Below, piece after piece: positions 44,079 to 59,981 of a stretch of 64,000 bases of DNA. The stretch lies in NCBI GenBank assembly GCA_016191105.1, contig JACPPH010000006.1, forward strand, positions 32,670 to 96,669, given 5' to 3'. The notes below the pieces were generated by a model, which saw only the letters and a list, made by a program, of their open reading frames with translations, did not search any database and was not told the origin of the DNA. This stretch comes from Candidatus Saccharimonadota bacterium. Lineage in GTDB: Bacteria; Patescibacteriota; Saccharimonadia; CAILAD01; BJGX01. The translations under genes were made by a program, and so were the position numbers. Within the stretch, counting starts at the first letter, position 1; each line of letters starts with the position of its first letter.

Positions 44079-45551
44079 ATGCAAAACAAAAACCACAGCC
44101 ATTTTTTGAGTTTGCCTCCCAAAATTTCTAAATCTGGGCAAAGGCCGAGTATGAAAGCCAGATTGTGGTTTGTAGCGATTGGAGTTCTGGCAGCTGTTGT
44201 AGTACTCAATGCTCTGGTAGCTGCCCTGTTCGAGGGCGTAATTTACCCGGGCGTTTCAGTCGCAGGGCACGACTTGAGTTTCAAAAATCGAGCCCAGGCA
44301 TTACAAGTTTTGCGCTCACAGAATCTTGACCGCCGCTTTGATTTGCGAGTTGGCGATAAAACATTCATCGCTACCAATAGTGATTTGGGGGCTGAGTATG
44401 AGCTAGGAGCTACGATTGAGGCTGCTTATAATGTCGGTCGCAACTGGCCTTTGCCGTTGGCTGGGCTAATAGAAGCCAGCAATAAAGGCACGGTTGGTTA
44501 TGCTTATAACATTAATAACACCCAGCTCAGTAAATTCACAGACAGCGTAGTTAGCTCGGTCGGGCGTGATCCGGTTAACGCAACATTGCAAATAACTGAC
44601 GGCAATATAAATGTAGTGCCAGATCGGGACGGATTACGGGTAGACCGGCGTTACCTTAACGATCTAATTGCCAATGCTCTGGCCGACGGAAAAGACCAAA
44701 CAATTAGTTTGCAGCCTGTGCCCAAAAAAGCCGACATTTTGGCAAAAGATACCGCTGCCGCCCAAAAACGAGCCGAAGATTATTTGAGTCGTCAAATATC
44801 ATTAAGCTATAACGGCAAGACATTTGTGCTAGATAGAACCGCTTTGGGGTATATGATAGTTTTCAATATTGTATCTGGATCCGATGGCAGGCCAGAGTTA
44901 AAAGCCGACATTTCTAAAGAGCAAATTTTGGGCTATCTACAATCTGTGGCTAACCAAGTGGATGTGGCTGCCCAAAATAAAATTGTAGTTGTTAGAAACG
45001 GTGCCAACTCGGTAGAGCAGGAAGGCAAAAATGGCACGACCATAAACCAACAACCGGCCGCCGATGCGATATTTACGGCACTCCAAAATGGTCAGAATAC
45101 AACGATAGCGCTAACTGATTCGCCGGTGCCGTTTCAAACTCAAACTAGCAACAGCAATGGTCCAGATGCCCGCATGTACATCGAGATTAATTTATCGAGC
45201 CAACGCCTATGGGCCTACCAAGATGGGCAGGTCGTTTATAGCTCACCAATAACAAGCGGCGCTACCGGCAAAGGGTTTCCGACTGTAACGGGCACATTTG
45301 CTATTTACGCCAAAGAAAGAAACCGCTACCTTAATGGCGCCGTCTATGGCTACGACTATAATGTCTTTGTTCAATACTGGATGCCTTTTTATCAGGGCTA
45401 TGGCCTACACGATGCTAGTTGGCGCAATAGCTTTGGTGGACAAGACTATTGGTTGAACGGCAGCCACGGTTGTGTAAATATGCCATTGGCAGCAGCAGTC
45501 TTCTTGTATGATTGGGCGCCAATTGGTACACCCGTTTGGGTACATAGCTAA
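44079..45551 (+). CDS. L,D-transpeptidase (YkuD domain) with peptidoglycan-binding domain
   Basis: N-terminal TM; GLHDASWR...GSHGCVN catalytic motif. Confidence 0.92.
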   Translation: MQNKNHSHFLSLPPKISKSGQRPSMKARLWFVAIGVLAAVVVLNALVAALFEGVIYPGVSVAGHDLSFKNRAQALQVLRSQNLDRRFDLRVGDKTFIATNSDLGAEYELGATIEAAYNVGRNWPLPLAGLIEASNKGTVGYAYNINNTQLSKFTDSVVSSVGRDPVNATLQITDGNINVVPDRDGLRVDRRYLNDLIANALADGKDQTISLQPVPKKADILAKDTAAAQKRAEDYLSRQISLSYNGKTFVLDRTALGYMIVFNIVSGSDGRPELKADISKEQILGYLQSVANQVDVAAQNKIVVVRNGANSVEQEGKNGTTINQQPAADAIFTALQNGQNTTIALTDSPVPFQTQTSNSNGPDARMYIEINLSSQRLWAYQDGQVVYSSPITSGATGKGFPTVTGTFAIYAKERNRYLNGAVYGYDYNVFVQYWMPFYQGYGLHDASWRNSFGGQDYWLNGSHGCVNMPLAAAVFLYDWAPIGTPVWVHS

Positions 45552-45590
45552 AATTAGCCAAAGCTGAACCATAACTGGTATAATTTTAGT

Positions 45591-46031
45591 ATGGATAACC
45601 GTACGCAAAATCTGCCAATACCAGAGCAGCCTAGGCGACCCCAGGGCAACGAACGAAAGCCGGTATTAAAGCCTGAGGTGGCACCAAAAGCTCCAGAAGT
45701 TCAGATGCAGCAGCCAGAGGTTCGTCCGTCTGGTGTGGAGCAACAACCACAAGCTAACCCAGCGCCACAAGCTGCCACACCGCCACCAGCACCAGCTTCT
45801 CCACTTACACAGCAGCCAGCTGCCCAGCCCGACCCGCTCGCGCAGGCCGGTGTAAAGACCCGCCCCGAAACTCTAGATGCTGACGATATTGATCTTATAG
45901 AAAAGGAATGGGTCGACACAGTCGATGATGTGATTGAGCATACTAAGGATGATCCGTACACTGAAGAGGAAGCTCAACAGAGCTTAAGCAAAACCTATCT
46001 AAAAAAGCGTTTTGGGATTGATGTTGATTAA
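45591..46031 (+). CDS. Hypothetical Pro/Gln-rich protein
   Basis: Disordered N-terminus; C-terminal DLIEKEWV..DDPY..YLKKRFG domain. Confidence 0.75.
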   Translation: MDNRTQNLPIPEQPRRPQGNERKPVLKPEVAPKAPEVQMQQPEVRPSGVEQQPQANPAPQAATPPPAPASPLTQQPAAQPDPLAQAGVKTRPETLDADDIDLIEKEWVDTVDDVIEHTKDDPYTEEEAQQSLSKTYLKKRFGIDVD

Positions 46032-46046
46032 TAAGTCGAACCAGCC

Positions 46047-48491
46047 ATGAATCAGTTTATACTACTAACTAGCACGCTGTTTGCACTGTTTCTGTTTATA
46101 CTCTTAGCAGTTGGTTTTTTGGTTTATCGACGCATAATTCATCATGCCAAAAATGTCGAGCGAAGTTTGAAGTTTGTGCCGTTACTGATTAGGCTACCGC
46201 CCCAAGAGGCCAACGAGGCCACCAATCGCGATGTGCGCGAAATGATCAAAGAAAACATTACTAAGGCCGAAGGTGTATTCAATTTACTATCTGGCATAAC
46301 AACTTCTAAGGCTCAAATTTATGGCCGCCGACACATTAGTTTGGAGATTATCGCTGAAGGGCCCATGATTTACTTTTATATGGCCGTGCCGGCTAGCCTT
46401 TTGAGCTCGGTTCAAAAAGCCCTGGCTTCCGGGTATCCAGGAATCCAGATCGAGAAAGCCGAGGATATAAACTTTTTTTCTAAAGTTAGCAAGGCCTCAG
46501 GCGTTCAGGGCGGTGAATTAGATCTCAAACGCGATAGCATACTGCCTATAAACACATTTCGCAATTCTGATAGCGATGCGCTGGGCGGTATTCTCTCCAG
46601 CTTATCTAATCTAGGAGACGATGAGGGAGCGGCTATACAGATTTTAATTCGTCCGGTATCTCAGCGCTGGGTAAAACGAGCCCACCGCAAAGCCCGAGCC
46701 TATTTGACAGGCAAAAAAACCGGTGGCGCCAAAGCTTTTTCGGCTGTTAGTGAATCAGTTCGAGCTGCTGGTGGTGGGTCGGGTGGTGAAAAGTCCCCCG
46801 CCGAAAACCATCAAGTTACCGACATGGAAAAAAAACGATCTGAAATTATTGAAGAAAAAGTTAGAACGCCGGCTTTTGAAACTAATATTCGGCTCGTAGC
46901 TAGCAGTGGCGATCCGGCCAAAGCCAAAGTGTTGTTGCAGGATATGTTGCTTGGCTTTGCGCAAATGACCCAGCAAGATGCTAATAGGTTTGAGTTCCAT
47001 CCAGCTGATACACCACAAAAGATCGCCACCGACTTTATATTCCGATTTTTTAATGAGCGCTTTTTACACCTTCATAAGATGGTCTTAAATTCGACTGAGT
47101 TGGCCACCATATTTCACCTACCAAGTGAAATTATTGAGATTGCTACCCCGCTGCAGCGCAAGGGCGTAAAGGAAGTTGCGGCTCCGACAGGCTTGCCGGA
47201 GCTGGGATTGGTATTGGGTACCAATATATTTCGTGGTGTTGAAGCAACCATTCATTTAAGCGATAACGATAGACGACGGCACTTATACATATTGGGTCAA
47301 ACTGGTACCGGTAAATCTACCTTGTTAGAGAACTTAATGTTGCAAGATGCCGCAGCTGGTAAGGGCTTTGCGTTTATTGACCCCCATGGCGATGCCGCCG
47401 AGAAGCTCTTGGCGATGTTGCCGCCCGGACGAGCCGAAGACGTAATCTACTTTAGCCCGGGCGATACAGAGGTGCCAATGGGCTTTAACATCATGGAATA
47501 CGACCCTAACAAGCCCGAGCAAAAAGACTTTCTGATCCAAGAAGCCATTCAGATGCTTTACAAGCTCTACGACCCACAGCATCAAGGGATAATTGGACCA
47601 CGCTATGAACACTGGTTTAGAAACGCTGCCCTGACAGTCATGGCTGACCCCGAGGGCGGTACCTTTGTGGAGATACCCAAGGTCTTTACTGATGATGAAT
47701 ATCTGAAAAAGAAATTCAAGTATTTAACAGACCCCACTGTCCAAGACTTCTGGACCGGTGAAATGGCTCAAACCGATGCCCACTCTAAATCTGAAATGCT
47801 GGGTTGGTTTGTGTCTAAATTTGGAGCCTTTGCCAACAATGAGATCATGCGAAACATTATTGGCCAAAAACATTCAGCTTTTAACTTTCGCGAAGTTATG
47901 GATGGCAACAAGATTTTGCTGGTGAATTTGAGCAAAGGCCTACTTGGCGACCTCAACTCCAAGTTGCTAGGTATGATTATGGTTATTAAGTTTCAGATGG
48001 CGGCTATGAGTCGAAGCGATACACCCGAAGATCAGCGCCCCGATTTTTCTGTGTACGTAGATGAGTTTCAGAACTTTAGTACTGATAGTTTTGCAACCAT
48101 TCTCTCGGAAGCTCGAAAATACCGGCTAAACCTAATTGTGGCCAATCAATTTATATCGCAATTGGACGAGCAGGTGCGTGACGCCGTATTTGGAAATGTC
48201 GGCTCAATTTTAAGCTTTCGGGTAGGAACCGACGATGCTGAATACATGGAAAAACAATTCCAGCCACAATTTAATCAGGCCGACCTTATAAATATACCCA
48301 ATGGCCAAGGTGTTGGCAGGGTTATGGCCAATGGTGTGCCAACCACACCGTTTAGTATTCATTTCCCACCACCAATAGGCGTGCCTAATCAAGAAATTTT
48401 AAAAGCCATGCGCGATCTAAGCCGTAGTAAGTATGGTCGGCCCAAGAACGAAGTCGAAGCCGAAATTACCAGTAGCCTGGCCGACAAATAA
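46047..48491 (+). CDS. VirD4/TraG/TrwB-like membrane-anchored ATPase
   Basis: RRHLYILGQTGTGKS, IDPHGD, YVDEFQNF, LSEARKY, ANQFISQL. Confidence 0.9.
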   Translation: MNQFILLTSTLFALFLFILLAVGFLVYRRIIHHAKNVERSLKFVPLLIRLPPQEANEATNRDVREMIKENITKAEGVFNLLSGITTSKAQIYGRRHISLEIIAEGPMIYFYMAVPASLLSSVQKALASGYPGIQIEKAEDINFFSKVSKASGVQGGELDLKRDSILPINTFRNSDSDALGGILSSLSNLGDDEGAAIQILIRPVSQRWVKRAHRKARAYLTGKKTGGAKAFSAVSESVRAAGGGSGGEKSPAENHQVTDMEKKRSEIIEEKVRTPAFETNIRLVASSGDPAKAKVLLQDMLLGFAQMTQQDANRFEFHPADTPQKIATDFIFRFFNERFLHLHKMVLNSTELATIFHLPSEIIEIATPLQRKGVKEVAAPTGLPELGLVLGTNIFRGVEATIHLSDNDRRRHLYILGQTGTGKSTLLENLMLQDAAAGKGFAFIDPHGDAAEKLLAMLPPGRAEDVIYFSPGDTEVPMGFNIMEYDPNKPEQKDFLIQEAIQMLYKLYDPQHQGIIGPRYEHWFRNAALTVMADPEGGTFVEIPKVFTDDEYLKKKFKYLTDPTVQDFWTGEMAQTDAHSKSEMLGWFVSKFGAFANNEIMRNIIGQKHSAFNFREVMDGNKILLVNLSKGLLGDLNSKLLGMIMVIKFQMAAMSRSDTPEDQRPDFSVYVDEFQNFSTDSFATILSEARKYRLNLIVANQFISQLDEQVRDAVFGNVGSILSFRVGTDDAEYMEKQFQPQFNQADLINIPNGQGVGRVMANGVPTTPFSIHFPPPIGVPNQEILKAMRDLSRSKYGRPKNEVEAEITSSLADK

Positions 48492-48567
48492 CAAAAAACT
48501 TGCAAACCATCGTCAACCAGTCTAAAATCAAAGCTAAAGTAATAAAGCTGTATATGAGGGTAAACAC

Positions 48568-50850
48568 GTGAATACATTTCGAAAATTAGTAACCGGCGTT
48601 AGTTCGGGTACTACCCCCGTTAGCAGACTGAAGTTTTATGGCAGCCGCCTAGCCCAAGAGGCGGCAACTCGAAAGATTGCAACAGTCTTAATGATTGGCT
48701 TGCTTATATTTCAGGTGGCGGTTTTTCTTTTCCCGCCAACCTCGGCCAGGGCTAACCAGTGCTCAGAAAATAATATCATTCGACCCTGTGGCATAACAGA
48801 CACTAGTAATCAGGGAGTGCTAAATGCTCTTAAGGGACCCGACAATGCAATTCAGCTTATGAATCAGCTAGGGGTGACAGACAGCGATGTTTTAAATGGC
48901 ACCCCTAATCAAACCGTTTGTAAAGGTCAAAATCCGCTTTCTATGGGTCGGGAGGCCGGTAGCGGTGGTTCCTGGTTATTCCCGGGGCATACAGACATTT
49001 ATGTAGGGCCTGCCAGCAGCAGATGGCAGCAAGAATGTTTCTCGGCAGAATTACTCGGCAACAAGGTGCGAGGCAGCGATATTGGTACTGGCGATCCCAA
49101 CCAGTGGTACCAGGTCGGCATTCTATATGCTTGTGGCAACTTGGTGTTTATACCAACCAGCCCGCCTTCAAAATCAATAGCTTGTACCTCCCTAGAAGCG
49201 GCACCATTGGCAGTCGACGTAAACCAGCCTATAAAACTAACTGGCCGGGCAAGTGGCCAAAATATTCCCAACGGCGAACTGGTCGATATGTCGTACCTTG
49301 TATACAGAGGCACCAATCCATCTGTAAATACAACGCCACTAGTTACAAAACTTGAGTCCAAAGGAATACCGTGGAACGGCACAGAGTTTATCGATGACAA
49401 TCCGCCTAAGCAGTTCCAGACAGATCAGCCTGATACCTATACTATTTTATTGGCCGTTGGCTATAACAATAATGGAGCACCTGCGCTAGCTCCAGGCTCA
49501 GGTGTAAATGAATGCCAAAAAGTTGTTACCGTAAAGCAACCGGCACAGCCCACAATTGTTTGCCAGAACCTGAGCATTGCCCCTACTACGCTTGCAGGTG
49601 GACAGCCGCTGTCCAATCTAACCGGTACAGCACAGCTAAAAAATTCCAACGACCCTAATGAGCTAGCTGACATGTCGTTTATATTCCGTGAAAAACAAGC
49701 CGATGGCAGCTTTACTGAGGTGCCTGATGCTAAAGGTAAGAGTAGGCTTGAGGCAGCTGGATTACAGCCTAGCGGCACCGGTATTTACACCGCTGTCAAG
49801 CCAAGTTCAGGCGATTCAAATGATACATTCTTTATGCCCACGAGCACACAGCAAAAAACGTACCAGGTATTCTTAAGAATATACTGGCGTGGCCATCAGA
49901 CTGTTTCCGATGCCTTTAGTGTGCCAGCCTGCCAAAAAGAAATTACAGTGCCACCAGTACAGAACTTTGCTTGCTCTAGCCTAAAGGCGAATCCAACCAG
50001 TGGTAGTGCTCCGCTCGACGTTAACTTCGATGCTGCAGGCATAGCTACCAACACCACTGTTTCAGCTTTTAAGTTCGATTACGGTGATGGCCAAAATCAA
50101 ACCGTAAATACCAACCAGCCAACCGCCAGGGCAGTTCACAAATATACCAAAGGAGGAAGATACACGGCCTCAGTAATTATGCAAACTGCTGCGGGGACGA
50201 CGTCTGTAGTTCCGGTCTGCCAGGCGGTCGTAACAGTTAACGAAAGTGATTTTGCCAAGATTGCTGCCAATATAACCCTGCTTACGTCTGACAGGCAGCC
50301 GACCGATGCCAATGGTGCTGTAGCAAGGGCAGGCGACCAATTGCGCTACACGATCGGTGTTCAAAACAAGGGCGGCGATGTTATAAGGGGCTTTGTGTTT
50401 GATGATGATATAACCGACATATTGGTCTACGCGGATGTAGTTGATCCAGGTGGTGCCCAGGCAGTTAAGCAAGGCGCAACCACTAAATTGGTTTGGGCTC
50501 CGATTGACATACCGGTGGGCACGAGTAGTAGCCCAGGAACAGTCACCAAGCAGTTTACAGTTAAACTTAAAGACCCTATCCCGTTTGTTGCCCAGAAGAC
50601 TACCGATCTACCGGGTACAAACGACTGCCAATTAACCAATACATTTCGTAGCAAAGTGGTTGTAACTCCGCTAGGCGTTGATATCAACAAGCAAATTGAG
50701 TGCGTAACCAAGCAGCTTCCGCAAACTGGTGCGGGCTGGAGTATAGTAATTATGGCTATGCTAGCGGCTGCTTCATTCTTCTTGTTATTGCGCAACCGAT
50801 TGCTCAAGCGTGAGCTACAATTAGTTGAAACACTAACGGAGGGAGCATAA
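48568..50850 (+). CDS. Surface protein with Ig-like/PKD and DUF11-like domains and an LPxTG sorting signal
   Basis: GSAPLDVNF..FDYGDG..HKY..GRYT PKD pattern; GDQLRYTI; LPQTG followed by TM and basic tail. Confidence 0.8.
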   Translation: MNTFRKLVTGVSSGTTPVSRLKFYGSRLAQEAATRKIATVLMIGLLIFQVAVFLFPPTSARANQCSENNIIRPCGITDTSNQGVLNALKGPDNAIQLMNQLGVTDSDVLNGTPNQTVCKGQNPLSMGREAGSGGSWLFPGHTDIYVGPASSRWQQECFSAELLGNKVRGSDIGTGDPNQWYQVGILYACGNLVFIPTSPPSKSIACTSLEAAPLAVDVNQPIKLTGRASGQNIPNGELVDMSYLVYRGTNPSVNTTPLVTKLESKGIPWNGTEFIDDNPPKQFQTDQPDTYTILLAVGYNNNGAPALAPGSGVNECQKVVTVKQPAQPTIVCQNLSIAPTTLAGGQPLSNLTGTAQLKNSNDPNELADMSFIFREKQADGSFTEVPDAKGKSRLEAAGLQPSGTGIYTAVKPSSGDSNDTFFMPTSTQQKTYQVFLRIYWRGHQTVSDAFSVPACQKEITVPPVQNFACSSLKANPTSGSAPLDVNFDAAGIATNTTVSAFKFDYGDGQNQTVNTNQPTARAVHKYTKGGRYTASVIMQTAAGTTSVVPVCQAVVTVNESDFAKIAANITLLTSDRQPTDANGAVARAGDQLRYTIGVQNKGGDVIRGFVFDDDITDILVYADVVDPGGAQAVKQGATTKLVWAPIDIPVGTSSSPGTVTKQFTVKLKDPIPFVAQKTTDLPGTNDCQLTNTFRSKVVVTPLGVDINKQIECVTKQLPQTGAGWSIVIMAMLAAASFFLLLRNRLLKRELQLVETLTEGA

Positions 50851-50851
50851 G

Positions 50852-51469
50852 ATGGCTGAAAAAGGTGGCGAAGAACTCCAGGGAGTAGGTAGCGAGCAGC
50901 AGGGCGAGAAGCTTCAGGCCGAATTAAGTGCCGAAAGGAAAAGTGCCAAGGCCACAGAGCGCGAGATTAAATCTTCTAAAGCAGAGCTTGAAAAAAGCGG
51001 TGAAAAAGCCGAGAAAAAATTAGCTCGTGAGGCCGAGAAAGAAGCCACCGAAGCTAATTTAGCCAAAAAATCTGAAGCTTCTGAAGCCAAAAAGGCTAAG
51101 CAGGCCGAAAAATCAGAAAAAAAAGAACCAATAGTAGCCGCCACACCCAAAGAGCGTAATCGAGCCTACAAAAAAGAAATGCGCAAGGTTCAGGCGCAAC
51201 TCTCACCAGGCTCTAGAATGTTTTCTAAGGTTGTACATAACCGAGCCGTAGAGGTCACCAGCAATGTGGCCGAAAAAACAGTTGTTCGTTCGTCGGTGTT
51301 GATTGGTGGTACGGTTGTGGGCATTATACTTGGCGGCCTAGTGTACTTTTCTGCTAATCGGTATGGTTACGGATTGCCCAATTGGTCGTTGGTATTCTTT
51401 TTAATAATGGGTGGTGTATTGGGTGTAGTAATTGAATTTTTACTCAAAGCCACACGCTCTACTAAGTAA
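50852..51469 (+). CDS. Hypothetical protein: charged coiled coil plus two C-terminal TM helices
   Basis: E/K/A-rich helix; two Gly-rich hydrophobic segments. Confidence 0.75.
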   Translation: MAEKGGEELQGVGSEQQGEKLQAELSAERKSAKATEREIKSSKAELEKSGEKAEKKLAREAEKEATEANLAKKSEASEAKKAKQAEKSEKKEPIVAATPKERNRAYKKEMRKVQAQLSPGSRMFSKVVHNRAVEVTSNVAEKTVVRSSVLIGGTVVGIILGGLVYFSANRYGYGLPNWSLVFFLIMGGVLGVVIEFLLKATRSTK

Positions 51470-51565
51470 TATATTACATCTAGCAACATAGTGGTTTGAC
51501 CTGGCCTGCTGGTGCTTATAATGGTAATATTGTAAGCATAAGAATATTCAATTATAGGTTGGGCT

Positions 51566-52405
51566 TTGAATCTTAGTGTTTTCAAGAGTGGCTTGAGGTT
51601 TTTGGGGTGCTTTTTTGGCACTGTTTTAGTTTTAATACTTGTGGCTCAAGCCTCTACTGCCGCAACGGTCTCTCAGGGCTATCAAAGCAACGACATATTG
51701 GTTACTGGCAACATTGTGAGCACAAATAGCAATGCCAACAATTACCAGGTTCAGCTTGCTACTACTGATAATTTTAACAATCTTTTGGGTATAGTGGTGA
51801 CGCCGAATTCTACTCTGCTCAGCATAGACAATACCTCGAGCTCAGCTCAGGTGGCAAGCAGCGGTGTTGCAAATGGCTTTGTCAGCGACATTAATGGCAA
51901 TATCAGCAAAGGTGACGCAGTTGCCATTTCTCCTATAGCAGGTGTAGGGATGAAGGCTACGCAACCAACGCGAATAGTTGGTGTTGCTCAAGCCGATTTT
52001 AAGTCGGCTACAAATGTACAGTCAAAAAATCTAGTAGATAAGCAGGGTCAATCTAAGCAAGTCCGAGTTGGGTTAATCCCGGTCTTGGTGAACGTTGGCG
52101 ATTATCAGCCCAGCAATTATTCTGGCAATTCTGCGGTTGTACGCGGCGTACAGTCGGCCGTTTCTAATCTCGCTGGCCGGTCAGTATCGGCAACCAGAGC
52201 TATGGCGGCTTTTGGGGTCATAACGCTCGCTATTATATTGGCCATTATTGTTTTGTATGCCTCGGTGACCGGGAGTATACGTTCAATTGGCCGAAATCCA
52301 TTGGCCAAGAAATCAGTTTTGCGAAGTTTGGCCCAGGTAATAGTGGCAGTAGGATTAATAATAGTCGCGGCAATCGCAGCCGTATATGTAATAGTAATCG
52401 CTTAA
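51566..52405 (+). CDS. Secreted-domain protein with C-terminal ATP-synthase c-subunit-like hairpin
   Basis: Signal peptide, beta-rich domain, TM-SIGRNPLA-TM; immediately upstream of the alpha-like gene. Confidence 0.65.
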   Translation: MNLSVFKSGLRFLGCFFGTVLVLILVAQASTAATVSQGYQSNDILVTGNIVSTNSNANNYQVQLATTDNFNNLLGIVVTPNSTLLSIDNTSSSAQVASSGVANGFVSDINGNISKGDAVAISPIAGVGMKATQPTRIVGVAQADFKSATNVQSKNLVDKQGQSKQVRVGLIPVLVNVGDYQPSNYSGNSAVVRGVQSAVSNLAGRSVSATRAMAAFGVITLAIILAIIVLYASVTGSIRSIGRNPLAKKSVLRSLAQVIVAVGLIIVAAIAAVYVIVIA

Positions 52406-52411
52406 AACATT

Positions 52412-53812
52412 ATGACAACCACTACAAAAACCCAGTCTGTTTCAAAAGTGCTTTCACGCCAAGGCTTTGTGGTAGAAGCGAACCCGATTGAGGGGATTCA
52501 CTTGCGAGCAACTGTAGAATTCGAGGATGGCACAATCGGCCTGGTTTGGGCTATAGAAGACACCATGAGGGTGTTGCTGCTAAATGATAGCGAAAAGGCC
52601 ACTGTTGGCTCCAAGCTCAAGCCACTACACCGGCAGGTTGCAATCGATTGTGGCGAGCACCTTTTGGGTCAAACAGTCGATTCTTTGGCCAGGCCGCTCG
52701 ATGCTAAAACCAAAGCGACTGCAGGCCAAGCTTTGCCAGTTTTTAATCTGGCGCCAAGCTTTTATGAGCGAGCCGTTGTGGACGCACAACTTGAAACCAG
52801 CGTAAGCTTGGTGGATACGCTCTTCCCCATAGTCAAAGGCCAACGCATAGCGGTCTTGGGCGATGCCAAGTCGGGTAAAACAACTTTTTTAAGCCAAGCT
52901 GCTATTCACCAGGCCCAGAACGATTGCATAATAATCTACGTTGTGATAGCCAAGGCCAAGCACAGTGTCGAAAAACTTAAATATAGACTATATCAGTCGG
53001 GGGCACTTAAGAACACAGTGATTGTGGTGGCCGACAGCTTCGATGCTTTGCCGCTATCGTTTTTGGCCCCCTACACCGGCTGTACTATTGGCGAATGGTT
53101 CTGGCACACCGGTCGCGATGTGGTAGTTATTTATGATGATTTGAGTAATCACGCCAAAATATACCGTGAACTTAGTTTGCTGCTTCGGACGAATCCGGGC
53201 AGAGAGGGTTATCCGGGCAATATGTTCTATACCCACTCCTCGTTATTAGAGCGAGCCGGTAAATTTAAAAAAAGCGGTTTTAGCCAGACAGTTTTAGCCG
53301 CTGGTACAACACCCAACGGCGATATAACTGGTTATTTTCCAACCAATCTAATATCTATGACCGACGGTCAGATCGTATTCGACCTCGAGACTATGCGCAA
53401 GGGAATTAAGCCGGCGGTTAATATTGGCTTGTCGGTTAGTCGTGTAGGTGGTCGCAGCCAAGAGCCCGAAATTCAAGAGCTTTCGGCTCGTGTTATGGAG
53501 GTTTTGGCAGGTTATCGACAGGCTAGCAGTTTTGCAAGGTTTGGTTCACAGCTTTCGGAGGTAGCCGCCAAGCAGCTTAAGCTTGGAGCCAAACTTTATG
53601 AACTGTTTGCTCAAGCGCCAGACCAAGCTTTTAGCCTAGCTGAGCAACGAGTAATGTTAGAAACGATATTTTTAACCAATGACATCGATTCTTTAAATGT
53701 TGGCTGGCTTAAGAGTGTGATCCACGACGTTGTTAAGTATGACCTCAAAACTACCAGTGATTATAAAGCCTTGGCCAAAGAGCTGATTAAAAGTAACCCG
53801 GTGGTTAAATAA
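52412..53812 (+). CDS. atpA: Divergent F1-ATPase alpha-like subunit
   Basis: GDAKSGKT, YDDLS, PGREGYPG, LLERAGK, ISMTDGQ, SVSRVGG. Confidence 0.9.
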   Translation: MTTTTKTQSVSKVLSRQGFVVEANPIEGIHLRATVEFEDGTIGLVWAIEDTMRVLLLNDSEKATVGSKLKPLHRQVAIDCGEHLLGQTVDSLARPLDAKTKATAGQALPVFNLAPSFYERAVVDAQLETSVSLVDTLFPIVKGQRIAVLGDAKSGKTTFLSQAAIHQAQNDCIIIYVVIAKAKHSVEKLKYRLYQSGALKNTVIVVADSFDALPLSFLAPYTGCTIGEWFWHTGRDVVVIYDDLSNHAKIYRELSLLLRTNPGREGYPGNMFYTHSSLLERAGKFKKSGFSQTVLAAGTTPNGDITGYFPTNLISMTDGQIVFDLETMRKGIKPAVNIGLSVSRVGGRSQEPEIQELSARVMEVLAGYRQASSFARFGSQLSEVAAKQLKLGAKLYELFAQAPDQAFSLAEQRVMLETIFLTNDIDSLNVGWLKSVIHDVVKYDLKTTSDYKALAKELIKSNPVVK

Positions 53813-54654
53813 TGGCTAAACCAACAGAAATTTTACGTGCTTACCAAGACACTATCGTGGTTGAAGAGGTCGCCCAGGTGTTTGAAAATGTTGCTTCTGT
53901 CCAGATTAGACGAATTAAAAGCAGGGTTATTGCAAGCCGGGAGTTTTTTCATGAACTGTGGGGAATGTACTCGCAGCTACGGTTAGATAGTAAGCTGAAA
54001 GATGATTTTGGGCCAGCCAAAACCAAAAACCAAGCCGTGCTATTAATCAGCTCAGACAGCGGCCTTTCGGGTTCGATCGATGAACGTCTAGTTGAGACCA
54101 TGATGCAAGAGGTCAACATTCGCTTAGTAGATGTGGTGGTTATCGGTCGGCGTGCGGAACAATTATTGACCCAAAAGCACATGAAAGCCGTTAGCGTTTT
54201 CCCGTTGCCCGACATTACCAAATCAATTCGGATATTGCCGCTGGTGAACTATCTGGCGCCATATAAAAAAGTAACTATATTTTATGAACGATTCGTGTCT
54301 TTGTCGCACCAAGAGATAGTTGCCTTTGAGCTTCAGGAGAGCGTAAAGCGCTTAAGCGAAGCCGAGTCGATTCGCGTAGACACAAACTTAATGTATGCCA
54401 GTGATTATATTTTCGAGCCTAGCCTGGCTGAGGTAGTTCTTTATCTGGAATCCATGATGCAGGCCACTGCCCTTACCGAGATGATTCTGGAGTCAAGATT
54501 GGCTCAGCTAGCCAGTCGCTATACAGCCATGAGCTCGGCTCACGACAATGCCGAGCAGAGAAAAAACCAGCTCAAGCGAGCCTACTCAATTGCTCAACGC
54601 CGAGGCAAAGACCAATTTAACCAAATATTTATTAGTCGGGAGCAGGCTAAATGA
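53812..54654 (+). CDS. atpG: Divergent F1-ATPase gamma-like subunit
   Basis: SSDSGLSG, YIFEPS, ASRYTAMSSAHDNA; lies between the alpha- and beta-like genes. Confidence 0.88.
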   Translation: MAKPTEILRAYQDTIVVEEVAQVFENVASVQIRRIKSRVIASREFFHELWGMYSQLRLDSKLKDDFGPAKTKNQAVLLISSDSGLSGSIDERLVETMMQEVNIRLVDVVVIGRRAEQLLTQKHMKAVSVFPLPDITKSIRILPLVNYLAPYKKVTIFYERFVSLSHQEIVAFELQESVKRLSEAESIRVDTNLMYASDYIFEPSLAEVVLYLESMMQATALTEMILESRLAQLASRYTAMSSAHDNAEQRKNQLKRAYSIAQRRGKDQFNQIFISREQAK

Positions 54655-55958
54655 AAACCTTTGTTGGCAAAGTGGTAAAAATGCGGTGGCTGCTAGTTAC
54701 AGTAGAGTACACAGGCGATAAGCCTCAGATATTTGAGTTGTTAAGCACCGGCAGTAAAAGTTTGCTGCTGGTTTACTGCATAGAGTCAGAGACTAGGCTT
54801 TTGGCTCTTAGTTTAGACCCCAATCTTACCGTAGCCTTGGGCGAAAAAATATCCAGCTTGAATAAGCACATTACACTACCGGTTGGTAGCGACGCTCTAG
54901 GCAGGGTTTTTAATGCCACTGGCACAGCTGTAGATGGCCTGCCGACGCCTAAGTCAACTACTACCATTGAGCTTAAGCCTTACCACGGCAGCGGCAAAAG
55001 TGGCTATGGTACATCTACAGATCTAATAGAAACAGGCATAAAAGTAATTGATTTCTTTGCCCCGTTTGTGCGAGGCCGCAAGATCGGCATAGTTGGTGGC
55101 GCAGGAGTGGGCAAGACTGTGCTTACAACCGAGCTAATGCACAACGTAGCCAGCGCCGATCGGGGCTTATCGTTTTTTGTTGGGATTGGTGAGCGCATAC
55201 GTGAAGCCCATGAGCTGTATAATAATCTGCGCGACAGCGGCCTACTAAAAAACACTGTTATGTATCTTGGCCAAATGAATGAAACGGCGGCTATGCGATC
55301 ATTGGTGGGTTTGAGTGCAGCCGCCAGTGCTCGTTACTTTCGCGACCAAGCCAAACGCGATGTGATATTTTTTGTAGACAATATTTACCGTTACCTGCAA
55401 GCTGGCAATGAGCTTGCTACCACCCTGGGTGAGTTGCCAAGCGAAGGGGGTTACCAGCCGACTCTGTTTTCTGATTTGCTTCAGTTTGAAGAGGGTCTAG
55501 ATACCAATGAATTTGGAGCCATAACTTCGGTCCAGTCGATCTTCATTCCGGCCGACGATCTTTCTGACCCAGCAGTTGTTGAGGTTTATCAGCAGCTCGA
55601 TAGTGTAATTGTACTGAGCCGCGAGGTTATGGAGTCTGGCATATTGCCAGCTGTAGATTTGGTCAACACCAGCTCGTCGTTGCTCTCGCCCGAAATTGTT
55701 GGTGAACGCCACTACTTTTTGGCTTCGCAAGTGGCCCAAATAATGCAAAAATACCAAGCCTTACAAGGAATTATTACGATTATTGGTGAGAGCGAACTAT
55801 CTATAACCGACCGCGTTGACTATAACAAGGCCAAAAGATTAATCGACTACTTTTCACAGTCCCTGTTTGTGACCGAACAGCTAACCGGCAAGAAGGGCCA
55901 GTATGTTGACCGCGAGGCCATGTTGTCGGGAGTTGAGGAGATATTAACCTCGGGATAG
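54651..55958 (+). CDS. atpD: Divergent F1-ATPase beta-like subunit
   Basis: GGAGVGKT, GERIRE, GQMNE, FVDNIYRY, GYQPTL, PADDLSDP. Confidence 0.93.
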   Translation: MKTFVGKVVKMRWLLVTVEYTGDKPQIFELLSTGSKSLLLVYCIESETRLLALSLDPNLTVALGEKISSLNKHITLPVGSDALGRVFNATGTAVDGLPTPKSTTTIELKPYHGSGKSGYGTSTDLIETGIKVIDFFAPFVRGRKIGIVGGAGVGKTVLTTELMHNVASADRGLSFFVGIGERIREAHELYNNLRDSGLLKNTVMYLGQMNETAAMRSLVGLSAAASARYFRDQAKRDVIFFVDNIYRYLQAGNELATTLGELPSEGGYQPTLFSDLLQFEEGLDTNEFGAITSVQSIFIPADDLSDPAVVEVYQQLDSVIVLSREVMESGILPAVDLVNTSSSLLSPEIVGERHYFLASQVAQIMQKYQALQGIITIIGESELSITDRVDYNKAKRLIDYFSQSLFVTEQLTGKKGQYVDREAMLSGVEEILTSG

Positions 55959-55960
55959 TT

Positions 55961-56209
55961 ATGCGGCCAACCTTTGAAGTCAAGATATTCTCACCATTTG
56001 AGACATACTATCAAGGCCAAGCTTACAGCTTATCGGCCAATAATGCCAGCGGACCATTTGATGTGCTGGCCGGCCACGCTAACTTTATCTGCCTGCTTTT
56101 ACCAGGCCCAGTGCGCATTGATACGCCCTATGGCCAGCGTGAGTACAATCTGACGCGTGGAATTGTTAGGGTTAATCAGAGTAAAGTTACACTGTTCGCC
56201 AATGTTTAA
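55961..56209 (+). CDS. atpC: F1-ATPase epsilon-like subunit, N-terminal domain only
   Basis: GPFDVLAGHANFI motif; 82 aa. Confidence 0.8.
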   Translation: MRPTFEVKIFSPFETYYQGQAYSLSANNASGPFDVLAGHANFICLLLPGPVRIDTPYGQREYNLTRGIVRVNQSKVTLFANV

Positions 56210-56213
56210 AGCC

Positions 56214-56687
56214 ATGAAGTGGAAGAAGCCACCTTTAAACAAAGTCTACGAGGCATTGGCTGTAATTGCTGATGGCAGAATTAAAATAACTGGCAATACA
56301 GCTCAAATCGTCTCAAGCAGCGGTAATAAAACCTATCAAGTAATTTATAGCCCCAAAAAAAATGCAATCACCGCCAACGACAACGGTAGCTTTTGGCAGG
56401 GCTACTTGGGCTATACCTGCATAGCCTTTTTACTCAAGAAGGGATTGGTTGAATTTGATCATGGCCTAGCTAAATATTTAAAGGGATTTATGTGGAAAGA
56501 CATGGCTGGTCGTTTTAAGCACGATTATAATCAGATAGATGCCTTTGTTGAGCAAGAAATAGCCAAAAAGCACCCAAACTTTAACTTGGCCGAGTTTCAT
56601 AAGCAACTAGAGAAAATATTGGCCGATGCTATGAAGCTAGACCTAAATAGGCTCCGATCGCCCAAAAAACCACCAGCCGGCTATTAA
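56214..56687 (+). CDS. Hypothetical protein
   Basis: Starts 4 bp after the epsilon-like gene; KVYEAL..SSSGNKTY..NDNGSFWQGYLGY. Confidence 0.7.
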   Translation: MKWKKPPLNKVYEALAVIADGRIKITGNTAQIVSSSGNKTYQVIYSPKKNAITANDNGSFWQGYLGYTCIAFLLKKGLVEFDHGLAKYLKGFMWKDMAGRFKHDYNQIDAFVEQEIAKKHPNFNLAEFHKQLEKILADAMKLDLNRLRSPKKPPAGY

Positions 56688-56774
56688 AATTGAGCTATTT
56701 TTATCTGGAAATCAGCTTGCTAAAGCTAACCATAAGCGATACAATTGTTGTAGCCTTAACTACATGGAGTCAAG

Positions 56775-59700
56775 GTGGAGCCGACAGCACAAACAAATAA
56801 TCAAACACTCGATTCAACATTTTCATCTCAAGTGAATCCCGAAGGTTTGCTGCCTTCGGATGTTGCTAGTGCCAACAATCAAGTTCAGGCATTACATCAG
56901 CGCAATCGCTACTTTCAGCTATTGTGGGCGGTTTTAATTGCCATTGCTCTACTTTTAGTTGGTTTGGCGGTTTGGCTTTTTTTGCGCAATAATACCAAGG
57001 TAATTAGTACTACCGGTGTTGCCGAACAGTACAGCCCGACCAGAGTTAATTTGACTAATACCGGCAATCCGACCGCGGTTAATTTGGGGCAGGTAAACAT
57101 TAATGGTGACCTCCAGGTTTTAGGTGATATTGCAGTCGGTGGCAGTATAAACGGCAACGGCAGCGGCATTACCAACATAAACCCAAACAATATTTCTGGA
57201 GTTATACCCGTTGGTCAGCTCGACCCAAATGTGGCGCTTCTCAACCGGAACTTTCAAACCTTTGTGGGCACCAATCAATTCTTTCGTAATAGTAGTAACT
57301 CAGTAGCGGCTTTTGAGATTCAAAATGCCTCCTCAGCACCGATTTTTAGCGTTGACACTAGCCAGGGTGCAGTGGCGATTAATTCGACGGTAACCTCACA
57401 GAATGGACTACAATTTGAAACTAACGGCAATGGCCGCTTTGCGGGCACACTCCAGGTGGGCGCCCAGTCAAATCCCAGTGTTTCGATTTTGAATACCGGC
57501 ACCCTGTTTAGCAACGACATTCAGCGCGTATTGACGGTCCAAGACATTACTCAGCCAAGCACAAATGTGCCTGGCCGAATTTACGTTGGAACCAGTGCCG
57601 AGCTATTGGCCGATCCACAAATTGATCCGGTTGCTATCACCTACTATCCGCTTCCTCCTGGTTTTCCGACCAACGTCCCGCTAACTGTTTCTGGTAATAA
57701 AAATATCTTTGCTGGCGGCTATTCGGCCGTACAAACAGCCAGCACTAACAGTAAGGACTATTTTATTGTTGGTGGCAACCTTAGTGGTGCCACACATGCT
57801 GGGTCGGGCAACGTTTTGGTAGATATTGGTCAGTTTAGTACGGTGAGTAATGTAGGTGCTGGATCAATTACGGCGGCGCTGGCAAATGTGGTGGCGCCAA
57901 CTATGACCCAGGGCGGCATTACCAACTACACCGGCTATACCGCACTTGACCCCCAGAGTTCAGCCCTAACTGGCTATGGTTTGCAGCCTTTGATAACTGG
58001 CGGGAGTTTGTTTACCCAAACTGGCATAGATATACAGTGGCAACACTCGGCTACTGGCGCAATTGGTACGTTTGCCAACTTAAATCTATATTCAGAAGGC
58101 CAGTCTTCAAATAACCTTATGGAGGGCTCGCTCATAATAGGTCAGTGCAACACATATAGTGCGGTTAACCTGTATGAGCTACTTAATATTGCTAATCCTA
58201 CCAACCGAACCAATTGTTTAAGCTCTACAGCAAATCAAGTTAGGTTGACCGTTGCAGGGACTGCTAGTCAGACCAGCGACCTAAGCCGATGGACAAATAG
58301 TAGTGGCACGGTGCTGGATAGCATTAGTTCGAGCGGCAAGTTGAATGTTCAAGGTTCGGGTTCGGAATTTGCGCTCAACGTAGGCAATACTAGCCTCAAC
58401 GGTGGCTTAATGATAAAAGGCACATTTGGCTCTGGCGACACCCTAACTACTACTGGCATCGGCACTAGAGCTTTTGTGTATCCAAAAAAAGCAGCCTTTC
58501 GGGCGGGTATTATTACAGGCAGTGGTCCGTATGCTGGTGCCGAATGGAACGATGCCAATATTGGCGACCGGACGGTTGTGTTTGGCAAAGACAGCGCCGC
58601 AGTTGGCAGCGATAACTTTGTGGCTGGCAATAACCTCAACGTTACTGGTTCTGCAAATGCAGTTTTTGGTGATGCGACTGGTTTTGGTGCTTCAATTGCC
58701 GGAATTGGAAATTTTAGTGTTGGCCCAAATACGATTAGTGCTACGACCGGCGTTGGCAATGCCGTGTTTAATGTGTTTAGTGGTGTTAGCTCTGTAATAA
58801 ACACGATTGGTACCGGCGGCAATGTAGTATTTGGTAACGGCAACTCAATCAGCACCGGCAGCTCTAACAGGTTATTTGGCAATAGCATTACTGCCACGGG
58901 TAGCAATGCCTATATAATTAACCTAAGCTCTACGGCAGTAAGTTCTTCGGCAAGCAATGTATTTTCGGTAATGAATGGCAAGGTAGGCATAGGCAGCACA
59001 AACCCCACTGCTCGCCTAGATGTTAGTGGTAGCTCGGGTACTGAAATAACGGCCATCTTCGACAACGGAACTTCTACTGGCGATATTATGCGCGCAAGAG
59101 ACGGCGGCACCCAAGTGTTCGCACTGGCAAATGAAGGTGCGGCCACATTCCAAAACAAAACTAACTCTACAGCGGCATTCCAGATTCAAAATGCTGCGGG
59201 AACTTCTAACTTGCTAATTGCTGATACCACCAATACCCGAATTGGCATTGGTGCTAGTGGACCAACCAACACTCTAACTGTTACCAACACAGGCACCACT
59301 AGTGTGGCCAAGTTTAATGGCTCAAGCAGCACCCAATGCACGGTGGTTACTGGCACCGGTTGGAGCTGTAGCTCCGACGAACGGTTAAAAACCAATATAC
59401 TATCGATTGATGATGGTTTGGATAAGATTATGCAACTGCGCGGCGTAACGTTTAATTGGGTGAGCGATCCGAACGGAGAACAGCAAGATGGATTTATAGC
59501 CCAGGAGGTTCAAAAAGTTTTGCCAGAGCTGGTAAGCACTGATACAAATGGTTACCAGAGCCTTAATAAAGACGGTATTTTAGCTTATCTTGTTAAAGCC
59601 GTTCAGCAACAACAGAGTCAAATTGACCAGCTAAAAAATATTGCTTCTAGCAGCGCTACGTCGATAGACGTAATTAAGATCCTTGCCGATGCCCAGGCCG

Positions 59701-59981
59701 TAACCCTAAGTGGCGACCTAACTGTAAATGGCCAAGTCGTGGTAGCTGGCAACTTGCAGCTCAAAGGCGACAACACGGGCGTAATTAGGGTACCGGCTGG
59801 CCAAACCCGTGTGCGCATGAGCTTTAATAGGCCATTCCAGGTGGCACCAAATGTTACGCTGACAGCCAAAGCCTTAACAAAAGTGAGCTACGCTGTTGAT
59901 AACGAATCAACTACCGGGTTCGATGTAATCTTGGAGTCGCCACAAGATCAGGATACGGTTTTGAATTACCACGCTCTCTAG
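56775..59981 (+). CDS. Membrane-anchored tail-fibre-like protein with Peptidase S74 chaperone domain
   Basis: N-terminal TM, G/S/T/N-rich beta repeats, KVGIGSTNPTARLDV, SSDERLKTNI..GFIAQEV..PELV..LVKAVQ. Confidence 0.88.
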   Translation: MEPTAQTNNQTLDSTFSSQVNPEGLLPSDVASANNQVQALHQRNRYFQLLWAVLIAIALLLVGLAVWLFLRNNTKVISTTGVAEQYSPTRVNLTNTGNPTAVNLGQVNINGDLQVLGDIAVGGSINGNGSGITNINPNNISGVIPVGQLDPNVALLNRNFQTFVGTNQFFRNSSNSVAAFEIQNASSAPIFSVDTSQGAVAINSTVTSQNGLQFETNGNGRFAGTLQVGAQSNPSVSILNTGTLFSNDIQRVLTVQDITQPSTNVPGRIYVGTSAELLADPQIDPVAITYYPLPPGFPTNVPLTVSGNKNIFAGGYSAVQTASTNSKDYFIVGGNLSGATHAGSGNVLVDIGQFSTVSNVGAGSITAALANVVAPTMTQGGITNYTGYTALDPQSSALTGYGLQPLITGGSLFTQTGIDIQWQHSATGAIGTFANLNLYSEGQSSNNLMEGSLIIGQCNTYSAVNLYELLNIANPTNRTNCLSSTANQVRLTVAGTASQTSDLSRWTNSSGTVLDSISSSGKLNVQGSGSEFALNVGNTSLNGGLMIKGTFGSGDTLTTTGIGTRAFVYPKKAAFRAGIITGSGPYAGAEWNDANIGDRTVVFGKDSAAVGSDNFVAGNNLNVTGSANAVFGDATGFGASIAGIGNFSVGPNTISATTGVGNAVFNVFSGVSSVINTIGTGGNVVFGNGNSISTGSSNRLFGNSITATGSNAYIINLSSTAVSSSASNVFSVMNGKVGIGSTNPTARLDVSGSSGTEITAIFDNGTSTGDIMRARDGGTQVFALANEGAATFQNKTNSTAAFQIQNAAGTSNLLIADTTNTRIGIGASGPTNTLTVTNTGTTSVAKFNGSSSTQCTVVTGTGWSCSSDERLKTNILSIDDGLDKIMQLRGVTFNWVSDPNGEQQDGFIAQEVQKVLPELVSTDTNGYQSLNKDGILAYLVKAVQQQQSQIDQLKNIASSSATSIDVIKILADAQAVTLSGDLTVNGQVVVAGNLQLKGDNTGVIRVPAGQTRVRMSFNRPFQVAPNVTLTAKALTKVSYAVDNESTTGFDVILESPQDQDTVLNYHAL

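Follow-up and report, generated by a model that had tools for sequence, protein, structure and literature searches.

A gene cluster of a Candidatus Saccharimonadota bacterium raises the question of what an F1-type ATPase would do when the parts that couple it to ion flow are missing. The cluster lies within a stretch of 64,000 nucleotides (contig JACPPH010000006.1; hereafter, the window) of a genome of 928 kb in 10 contigs (99.73% complete). It consists of genes for F1 alpha-, gamma-, beta- and epsilon-like subunits, preceded by a gene for a secreted protein that ends in a hairpin resembling subunit c (hereafter, the fusion) and followed by genes that include a membrane-anchored S74 fibre (Table 1). 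The initial annotation of this DNA had recognized the four F1-like genes in this order, the fibre gene downstream, and the absence of adjoining a, b or delta genes, all of which holds at the locus. Our preferred answer, to which sequence comparison leads us to assign a probability of about two in three, is that this divergent F1, which lacks subunit a and is combined with a carboxylate-free c-type fusion, likely hydrolyses ATP to act mechanically, across the membrane, on the neighbouring fibre, and not to transport ions.

A c-type hairpin without the carboxylate

The hairpin of the fusion matches 27 canonical Patescibacteria c subunits over 65 columns without gaps (HHalign 92.5%, E 4.8e-7), and the two groups have the GRNP loop in common. 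In 56 of 80 loci, the gene itself occupies the atpE slot, with b and delta after it (gene order was counted in the 80 best of the 409 genome loci). Judging from this moderate match, the fusion hairpin is homologous to subunit c, as the initial annotation had suspected. The column of the c carboxylate corresponds to G263 of the window fusion, the final 94 residues of which include no acidic residue. No aspartate or glutamate is present at loop positions P+14 to P+22 in 197/197 and 19/19 hairpins, whereas all 27 canonical c subunits carry one. The predicted signal peptide would place the outer domain outside the membrane and the loop inside, which is the topology of c.

In the structural model of the fusion (mean predicted local distance difference test score 88.7), an N-terminal helix is followed by a beta domain, then by a short helix and the hairpin. 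The top fold match of the beta domain is the C-terminal fragment of phi29 gp12 (Z 13.1, root-mean-square deviation 2.4 A, 112 residues), and capsid decoration (cement) proteins match the same outer domain with Z of 9-11. At the sequence level, weak matches to PF23982 were detected in 31 of the 86 members of the fusion family, and a search of solved structures returned none. Outer domains of this type also recur within proteins of 800-4900 amino acids. Conversely, the carboxylate-free hairpin is found fused to an NHL-repeat domain or closing a multi-frame Ig-like protein (L151 5975-7498, L153 9659-11152, L152 4763-5155), so that the outer domain appears to be exchangeable.

An F1 motor of its own kind

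The catalytic apparatus of the motor is conserved. Walker A (K155/T156), the catalytic E181, R182 and the Walker B D243 are all present in the window beta subunit, and the corresponding residues are retained in 86-87 of 87 beta rows, as is the arginine finger in 96/96 alpha rows (counted by alignment column, some duplicate loci included). Other conserved features are altered: the DELSEED motif reads SELSITD in the window beta, with loss of acidic residues, and the C-terminal tail of epsilon, which acts as a brake on ATP hydrolysis, measures 0-32 residues in 94/94 module copies vs 55-72 in 15/15 canonical ones. The delta subunit of the family is readily recognized (HHalign 96%; OSCP E 2e-7), and the b-like protein matches weakly (HHalign 65%, no match to PF00430).

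In phylogenetic trees built on beta, the module forms a clade of its own (40 rows), supported by Shimodaira-Hasegawa-like approximate likelihood ratio test (SH-aLRT) values of 98 and 97 in two trees, the second of which is a quick mixture-model version on 46 of the 76 rows; the canonical F1 clade stands apart from it with SH-aLRT 97 and 98. The position outside canonical F1 that the initial annotation proposed to look for is thus the one obtained, and the union of module and canonical Patescibacteria betas is rejected by the approximately unbiased test (p-AU 2.6e-5). Unions with two mycoplasma Type 3 betas (p-AU 0.37; all mycoplasma betas in the tree are of Type 3), with a second operon of Listeria (0.16) and with N-ATPases (0.054) are not rejected; module and mycoplasma Type 3 betas are not sisters in the best trees. 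Three Patescibacteria operons (L148, L149 and L150) that encode a, an acidic c and a short epsilon but no separate delta branch beside the ion-blind clades with weak support, and their arrangement is possibly the ancestral state. A sister cluster in four loci (L134, L154, L155 and L158) comprises a giant protein, an ABC ATPase, a MacB/FtsX permease, b-like, delta, alpha, gamma, beta and epsilon, with no adjacent c-like gene, and its betas form a separate branch. Some betas reach 646-764 amino acids, far over the usual length (L159, L162, L164, L151 and L153).

The fusion and the divergent F1 occur together. Relatives of the fusion number 901. Among 91 genomes of the class, the gamma subunits split by PF00231 score into those of 238-305 bits, encoded beside subunit a, and a divergent group of 77-128 bits (this grouping excludes the two fragments of a canonical gamma that is split). 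Every genome with a full-length fusion has the divergent gamma (56/56), and 56 of the 59 genomes with divergent gamma have the fusion; one of the other three carries a different type of cluster and was set aside, leaving 58 module genomes. The sequence identities of fusion and beta are correlated (Spearman 0.87, 56 loci). Downstream of the fusion gene, the 80 loci contain b-like, delta and alpha in 56 cases, alpha directly, as in the window, in 4, and a large protein without ATPase genes in 15 (500-3,300 amino acids, several cut by the end of the locus); the remaining 5 are cut, uncalled or otherwise arranged. Upstream of it, no gene is conserved across these loci. In two loci (L077 and L078), two fusion genes occur close together with fibres near and ATPase genes not adjacent. 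The linkage extends beyond the class: the 31 low-scoring gamma loci from the phylum's other classes comprise 15 in which this fusion lies upstream, 3 with the hairpin on another outer domain, 7 without an adjacent hairpin, 3 MacAB-linked clusters and 3 true operons with a and c.

No recognizable path for ions

In the window genome, no subunit a was detected by Pfam models or by a profile built on 21 a proteins of Patescibacteria (best E 0.66), and no free c by Pfam or by a Patescibacteria c profile (best E 0.19). The initial annotation had suggested looking for a separate canonical atp operon; instead, the genome encodes the module twice, the other copy being located about 30 kb beyond the first on the same contig, with fusion, b-like, delta, alpha, gamma, beta and epsilon genes followed by the start of a fibre gene (Table 1). 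A match to subunit a is found in 36 of the 58 module genomes and in none of the other 22, the window genome among them. When both subunit a and the carboxylate are missing, no known route is left for ions, and the output of the motor would therefore have to pass through the outer domains.

Could the module nonetheless remain an ion pump or synthase that employs an unrecognized a-like subunit or a shifted ion site? Most copies do retain b-like and delta subunits, polar residues (Q, E or N) occur at P+12 or P+13 of the hairpin, and the 22 module genomes in which no other a was found might need a pump. However, the module has no conserved neighbour with multiple transmembrane (TM) helices, and the window fusion is devoid of acidic residues throughout its final 94 residues. 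Subunit a is encoded elsewhere in 36 of the 58 module genomes, 25 of the 91 genomes of the class have neither the module nor the canonical system, and the canonical F1Fo enzyme is dispensable in Southlakia, according to the available passages of PMC10633639. We consider a pump of this kind very improbable.

Linkage to surface fibres

The proposed link to mechanical work comes from the fibre. In the window, this protein consists of an N-terminal tail, a TM helix, a conserved neck motif, a stalk rich in G, S, T and N, the S74 chaperone and a C-terminal domain that is common to other module-linked fibres. Defining a fibre-like gene as one that encodes an early membrane helix followed by a G/S/T/N-rich stretch, we found that 38 of the 51 Saccharimonadia loci with full flanks have one at most 1.3 kb away, compared with 0/14 canonical atp loci (only 5 of these fully flanked); the background is 26 of 638 more distant open reading frames (ORFs) and 7 of the 932 ORFs of the window genome. 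Module-linked fibres range from 300 to 3,300 amino acids, and many of them have a C-terminal beta-sandwich in common. The neck lies just outside the membrane and was recovered in 37 of 43 leave-one-out trials. It is present in 50 of the 58 module genomes vs 3 of 33 others, these three being partial matches near E 3e-4, and within the window's own family the split is 7/7 vs 0/7. Where the operon is split, the fibre adjoins the fusion in 5 of 8 retrieved stand-alone copies, and 2 more lie among Pam-like genes. The fibre thus stays with the fusion and the fusion with the divergent F1. Of the two outcomes that the initial annotation had named as refuting its proposal, neither was obtained: alpha and beta are not simply displaced canonical subunits, and the fusion and the fibre do co-occur with the ATPase.

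A fold search with a short module-linked fibre yielded no match at E 0.001 or better; the best rows, phage tailspike and pyocin fibre domains and H-type lectins (E 0.015-0.09), are a lead only. In other classes, large module neighbours begin with a MerR-type helix-turn-helix before the membrane helix (L169 1284-4064 and L172 10752-14999).

Weighing the evidence

Several observations weigh against the preferred reading. The match between hairpin and c drops to 52.5% over 28 columns when a narrower alignment of 86 sequences is used, the Pfam model of subunit c (PF00137) gives no match to the fusion hairpin, and the glycines of the inner helix, on average 5.15 in canonical c, are reduced to 0.55, so that the packing motif is largely gone. 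In the fold search, unrelated helical hairpins score nearly the same as c subunits (Z 8.4-9.9 vs 8.8-10.0) and, because generic hairpins score alike, this search alone is no proof of kinship with c. Position P+12 carries glutamine and sometimes glutamate (28 of 197 hairpins). A short epsilon also occurs in 3/3 second operons of Patescibacteria that encode a and an acidic c. Adjacency of fibres is weak in the other classes (6/19), 8 of the 58 module genomes have no neck match, and the neck profile was seeded in several cases with sequences of the sampled genomes, in which kin are not independent. The ring, its rotation and its contact with the fibre are predicted. Finally, the gene neighbourhood ties the module to Pam pilus genes as well, as seen in the available part of the preprint PMC13278184. 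The idea of a non-ion-pumping surface machine, put forward in the initial annotation, therefore stands in part: the lack of a and of the carboxylate and the co-occurrence with fibres speak for it, and rotation and action on the fibre are what it still adds to these observations.

The tie to Pam pilus genes bears on an alternative under which the ion-blind motor serves Pam pili, or surface remodelling in general, with the fibre merely a neighbour. Pam-chaperone-like genes (a label inferred from the description in PMC13278184) lie just beyond a short fibre in many loci and adjoin epsilon in L159, L162 and L164. The passages of PMC13278184 available to us describe pam operons flanked by genes for ATP synthase and by a tail-fibre-like gene, and report that no retraction motor was found. 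By contrast, the window and its close relatives carry giant fibres with no Pam-like genes nearby, the neck tracks the module genome by genome, and the fusion remains with the fibre in split operons. We regard service to the pili as unlikely.

The size of the fibres would also fit a different role, in which the ring would be a protein-conducting or unfolding channel and the ATPase would export or thread the giant fibre, similarly to a type III export ATPase. The absence of an ion path and substrates of up to 3,300 amino acids fit this scheme, as does the sister cluster in which the b-delta-alpha-gamma-beta-epsilon genes are joined to a MacAB-like exporter and a giant protein. It is nevertheless distinctly unlikely in our view: gamma and epsilon are retained and, given the anatomy of F1, would fill the central pore, and the ordinary N-terminal anchor of the fibres could be inserted by the Sec route.

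The stator-less copy of the window

The initial annotation had taken the lack of b and delta as a defining trait of the system. Given that these subunits are the family norm, the window copy is instead a derived, stator-less variant: in the beta tree, it falls into a subgroup that lacks b and delta and is nested among copies retaining both. Delta binds the N-terminal part of alpha, and the FxxLV motif of this region, present in 62 of 66 other Saccharimonadia alphas, is missing in all 6 stator-less ones (0/6), so that the losses of b, delta and the alpha helix appear coordinated. The loss in alpha also argues against a stator borrowed from the paralogue. Both forms are encoded in G007, G013, G015 and G020. 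A motor of this form would need another anchor, possibly the cytoplasmic tail of the fibre.

The same losses, along with long branches, the foreign gene after epsilon and a gamma in two ORFs in the relative L217, could be taken to indicate that the window copy is a duplicate in decay, no longer able to work without its stator. Yet the reading frames of the window copy are all intact, its catalytic residues are in place, and the stator-less form is maintained in at least 8 other genomes, with beta identities of 53-63% among those compared. Moreover, G009 and G017 (98% and 93% complete) yielded this form alone and neither b nor delta. The chance that the window copy is a relic therefore seems slim.

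A possible mechanism

Under the preferred reading of the module as an F1-driven device acting on fibres, the alpha3beta3 hexamer would hydrolyse ATP and turn gamma and epsilon together with a ring of hairpins. The hairpins may form this ring in the manner of c, with the GRNP loop contacting gamma and epsilon, and in most genomes the b-like and delta subunits would hold the motor. Outside the membrane, the outer domains of the ring might grip the conserved neck of a trimeric fibre. Action on the neck is favoured because the fold of the outer domain is known from chaperones of trimeric fibres and from the bases of fibres, and because the neck is conserved at the height at which the outer domains would lie. 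The most likely task, carrying about half of the weight, is that of helping the fibre trimer to fold, stand up or be released. The motor might be viewed as the membrane-tethered, externally powered counterpart of the internal chaperone domain of phage fibres; chaperone domains of the gp12 type show ATP-dependent release. A bolder version, which we put forward tentatively as possible but doubtful, is that the c-ring is a turntable that passes ATP-driven torque to adhesion fibres outside the cell, erecting, reeling or spinning them in the course of host capture.

Relationship to known systems

The canonical F1Fo enzyme, as represented by Southlakia epibionticum SEML1_0349-0358 in the accessible portion of PMC10633639, resembles the module in the c-b-delta-alpha-gamma-beta-epsilon order of the family norm, the GRNP loop and the catalytic residues. 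It differs from the module, which lacks a and the carboxylate, has c extended by a signal peptide plus an outer domain, has a tail-less epsilon and a separate beta clade, and coexists with a canonical operon in many genomes.

The F1-like X0 ATPases of mycoplasmas, of Type 2 (gliding) and Type 3 (MIB-MIP), are a precedent for F1 motors put to other work, and the module would work likewise if our reading is correct. As described in the available passages of PMC3369863 and PMC12994834, the X0 proteins are not homologous to Fo subunits and include a 12-TM protein but no b, and the cluster comprises seven genes. In contrast, the module has a c-related membrane subunit, usually b-like and delta subunits, no 12-TM gene and a different gene order, and all scores against the mycoplasma family models are below the cut-offs (score/cut-off in bits: MSC_0618 399/570, MSC_0619 241/520, MMOB1660 318/600, MMOB1670 327/850).

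[quoted passage not shown] This operon has no a gene, and its c has a GKNP loop and a valine at the usual ion site, with no acid; the hairpin profile matches this c at 92.4%, and genes for proteins of 1959 and 768 amino acids precede the operon. Here, however, c is a free protein of 80 amino acids without an outer domain, delta has a long N-terminal extension (probably b-like), and beta falls outside the Patescibacteria clade in the best trees, although union is not rejected.

N-ATPases resemble the module in being an extra copy beside the main enzyme, with a proposed hydrolysis-only function, and the beta tree places them, weakly supported, on the module's side, but they have a, an ion-binding c, atpQ and atpR, no delta and the order atpDCQRBEFAG (judging from the accessible passages of PMC2881411). 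The cluster of the window does not show the N-ATPase features and scores 330/750 and 392/752 bits (score/cut-off) with the alt_F1F0 models. The C-terminal domain of phi29 gp12 and the capsid cement proteins are alike in the fold of the outer domain, which in the module is tethered to a c-type hairpin; a chaperone role of gp12-type domains is described in the portion of PMC8326128 at hand.

The available text of PMC13278184 reads the ATP synthase and tail-fibre neighbourhood of pam operons as coupling to ATP production. In bioRxiv 10.64898/2026.10.01.756066, unusual beta neighbourhoods of the Candidate Phyla Radiation were examined according to the methods section, and the supplements may show the module. 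We found no description of it in open full-text literature, including the available passages of PMC10656485, PMC7143001 and the main text of that preprint. The ion-blind F1 system is real and widespread and, apparently, undescribed.

Gene content of the window

The fusion, alpha, gamma, beta and epsilon genes of the window abut or overlap one another. A scan for promoters and terminators was uninformative (20 and 11 sites vs 14.2 and 10.3 expected). The UCP014422-like gene inserted between epsilon and the fibre has no counterpart in related clusters and probably stands outside the machine; its family includes many archaeal members. The coiled-coil gene upstream of the fusion, which the initial annotation had included in the machine, occurs in 8 of 82 loci and travels with the upstream block. 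As a substitute stator it was rejected: it has no match to b, occurs in copies that retain b and delta, and is missing in the stator-less L036. Contig C1 carries the end of one S74 fibre and the start of another, perhaps in continuation of the fibre of the second module copy.

Table 1. Genes of the window and the second copy of the module in the same genome
Feature	Coordinates	Strand	Description
Upstream block	44079-51469		L,D-transpeptidase, proline-rich protein, coupling-protein-like ATPase, PKD/DUF11 surface protein, coiled-coil gene; about 8 related loci
Coiled-coil/2-TM gene	50852-51469	+	part of the block found upstream in close relatives
c-like fusion, 279 amino acids	51566-52405	+	predicted signal peptide, beta-tulip domain 34-177, helix 190-203, hairpin 209-278
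F1 alpha-like, 466 amino acids	52412-53812	+	PF00006; arginine finger R344 present; N-terminal helix motif of the family gone
F1 gamma-like, 280 amino acids, divergent class	53812-54654	+	PF00231, 101 bits
F1 beta-like, 435 amino acids	54651-55958	+	PF00006; catalytic residues retained
Epsilon, 82 amino acids	55961-56209	+	PF02823; N-terminal beta-sandwich only, without C-terminal helical tail
UCP014422-like gene, 176 amino acids	56157-56687	+	between epsilon and fibre genes; unrelated to ATPase
Membrane-anchored S74 fibre, 1068 amino acids	56775-59981	+	PF13884 at residues 867-920, E 6e-18; one TM helix at about residue 45
Second module copy	G000:C10:118902-125602 (L002 10903-17603)		has b-like and delta; its fibre gene is cut at the contig end

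Implications

For the 22 module genomes with no match to subunit a, genes labelled 'ATP synthase' should not be taken as evidence of chemiosmotic capacity. An F-type rotor that would be uncoupled from ion flow, yet retains c, b and delta, bears on the evolution of rotary ATPases from or into non-pumping motors. Should the turntable version hold, it would add a further route of energy transfer across the membrane to those provided by type IV pilus and secretion ATPases; the window genome would then have a version free of the stator, and Firmicutes would have parallel forms lacking a and the carboxylate. For the epibionts themselves, the module is a candidate energy source for host attachment.

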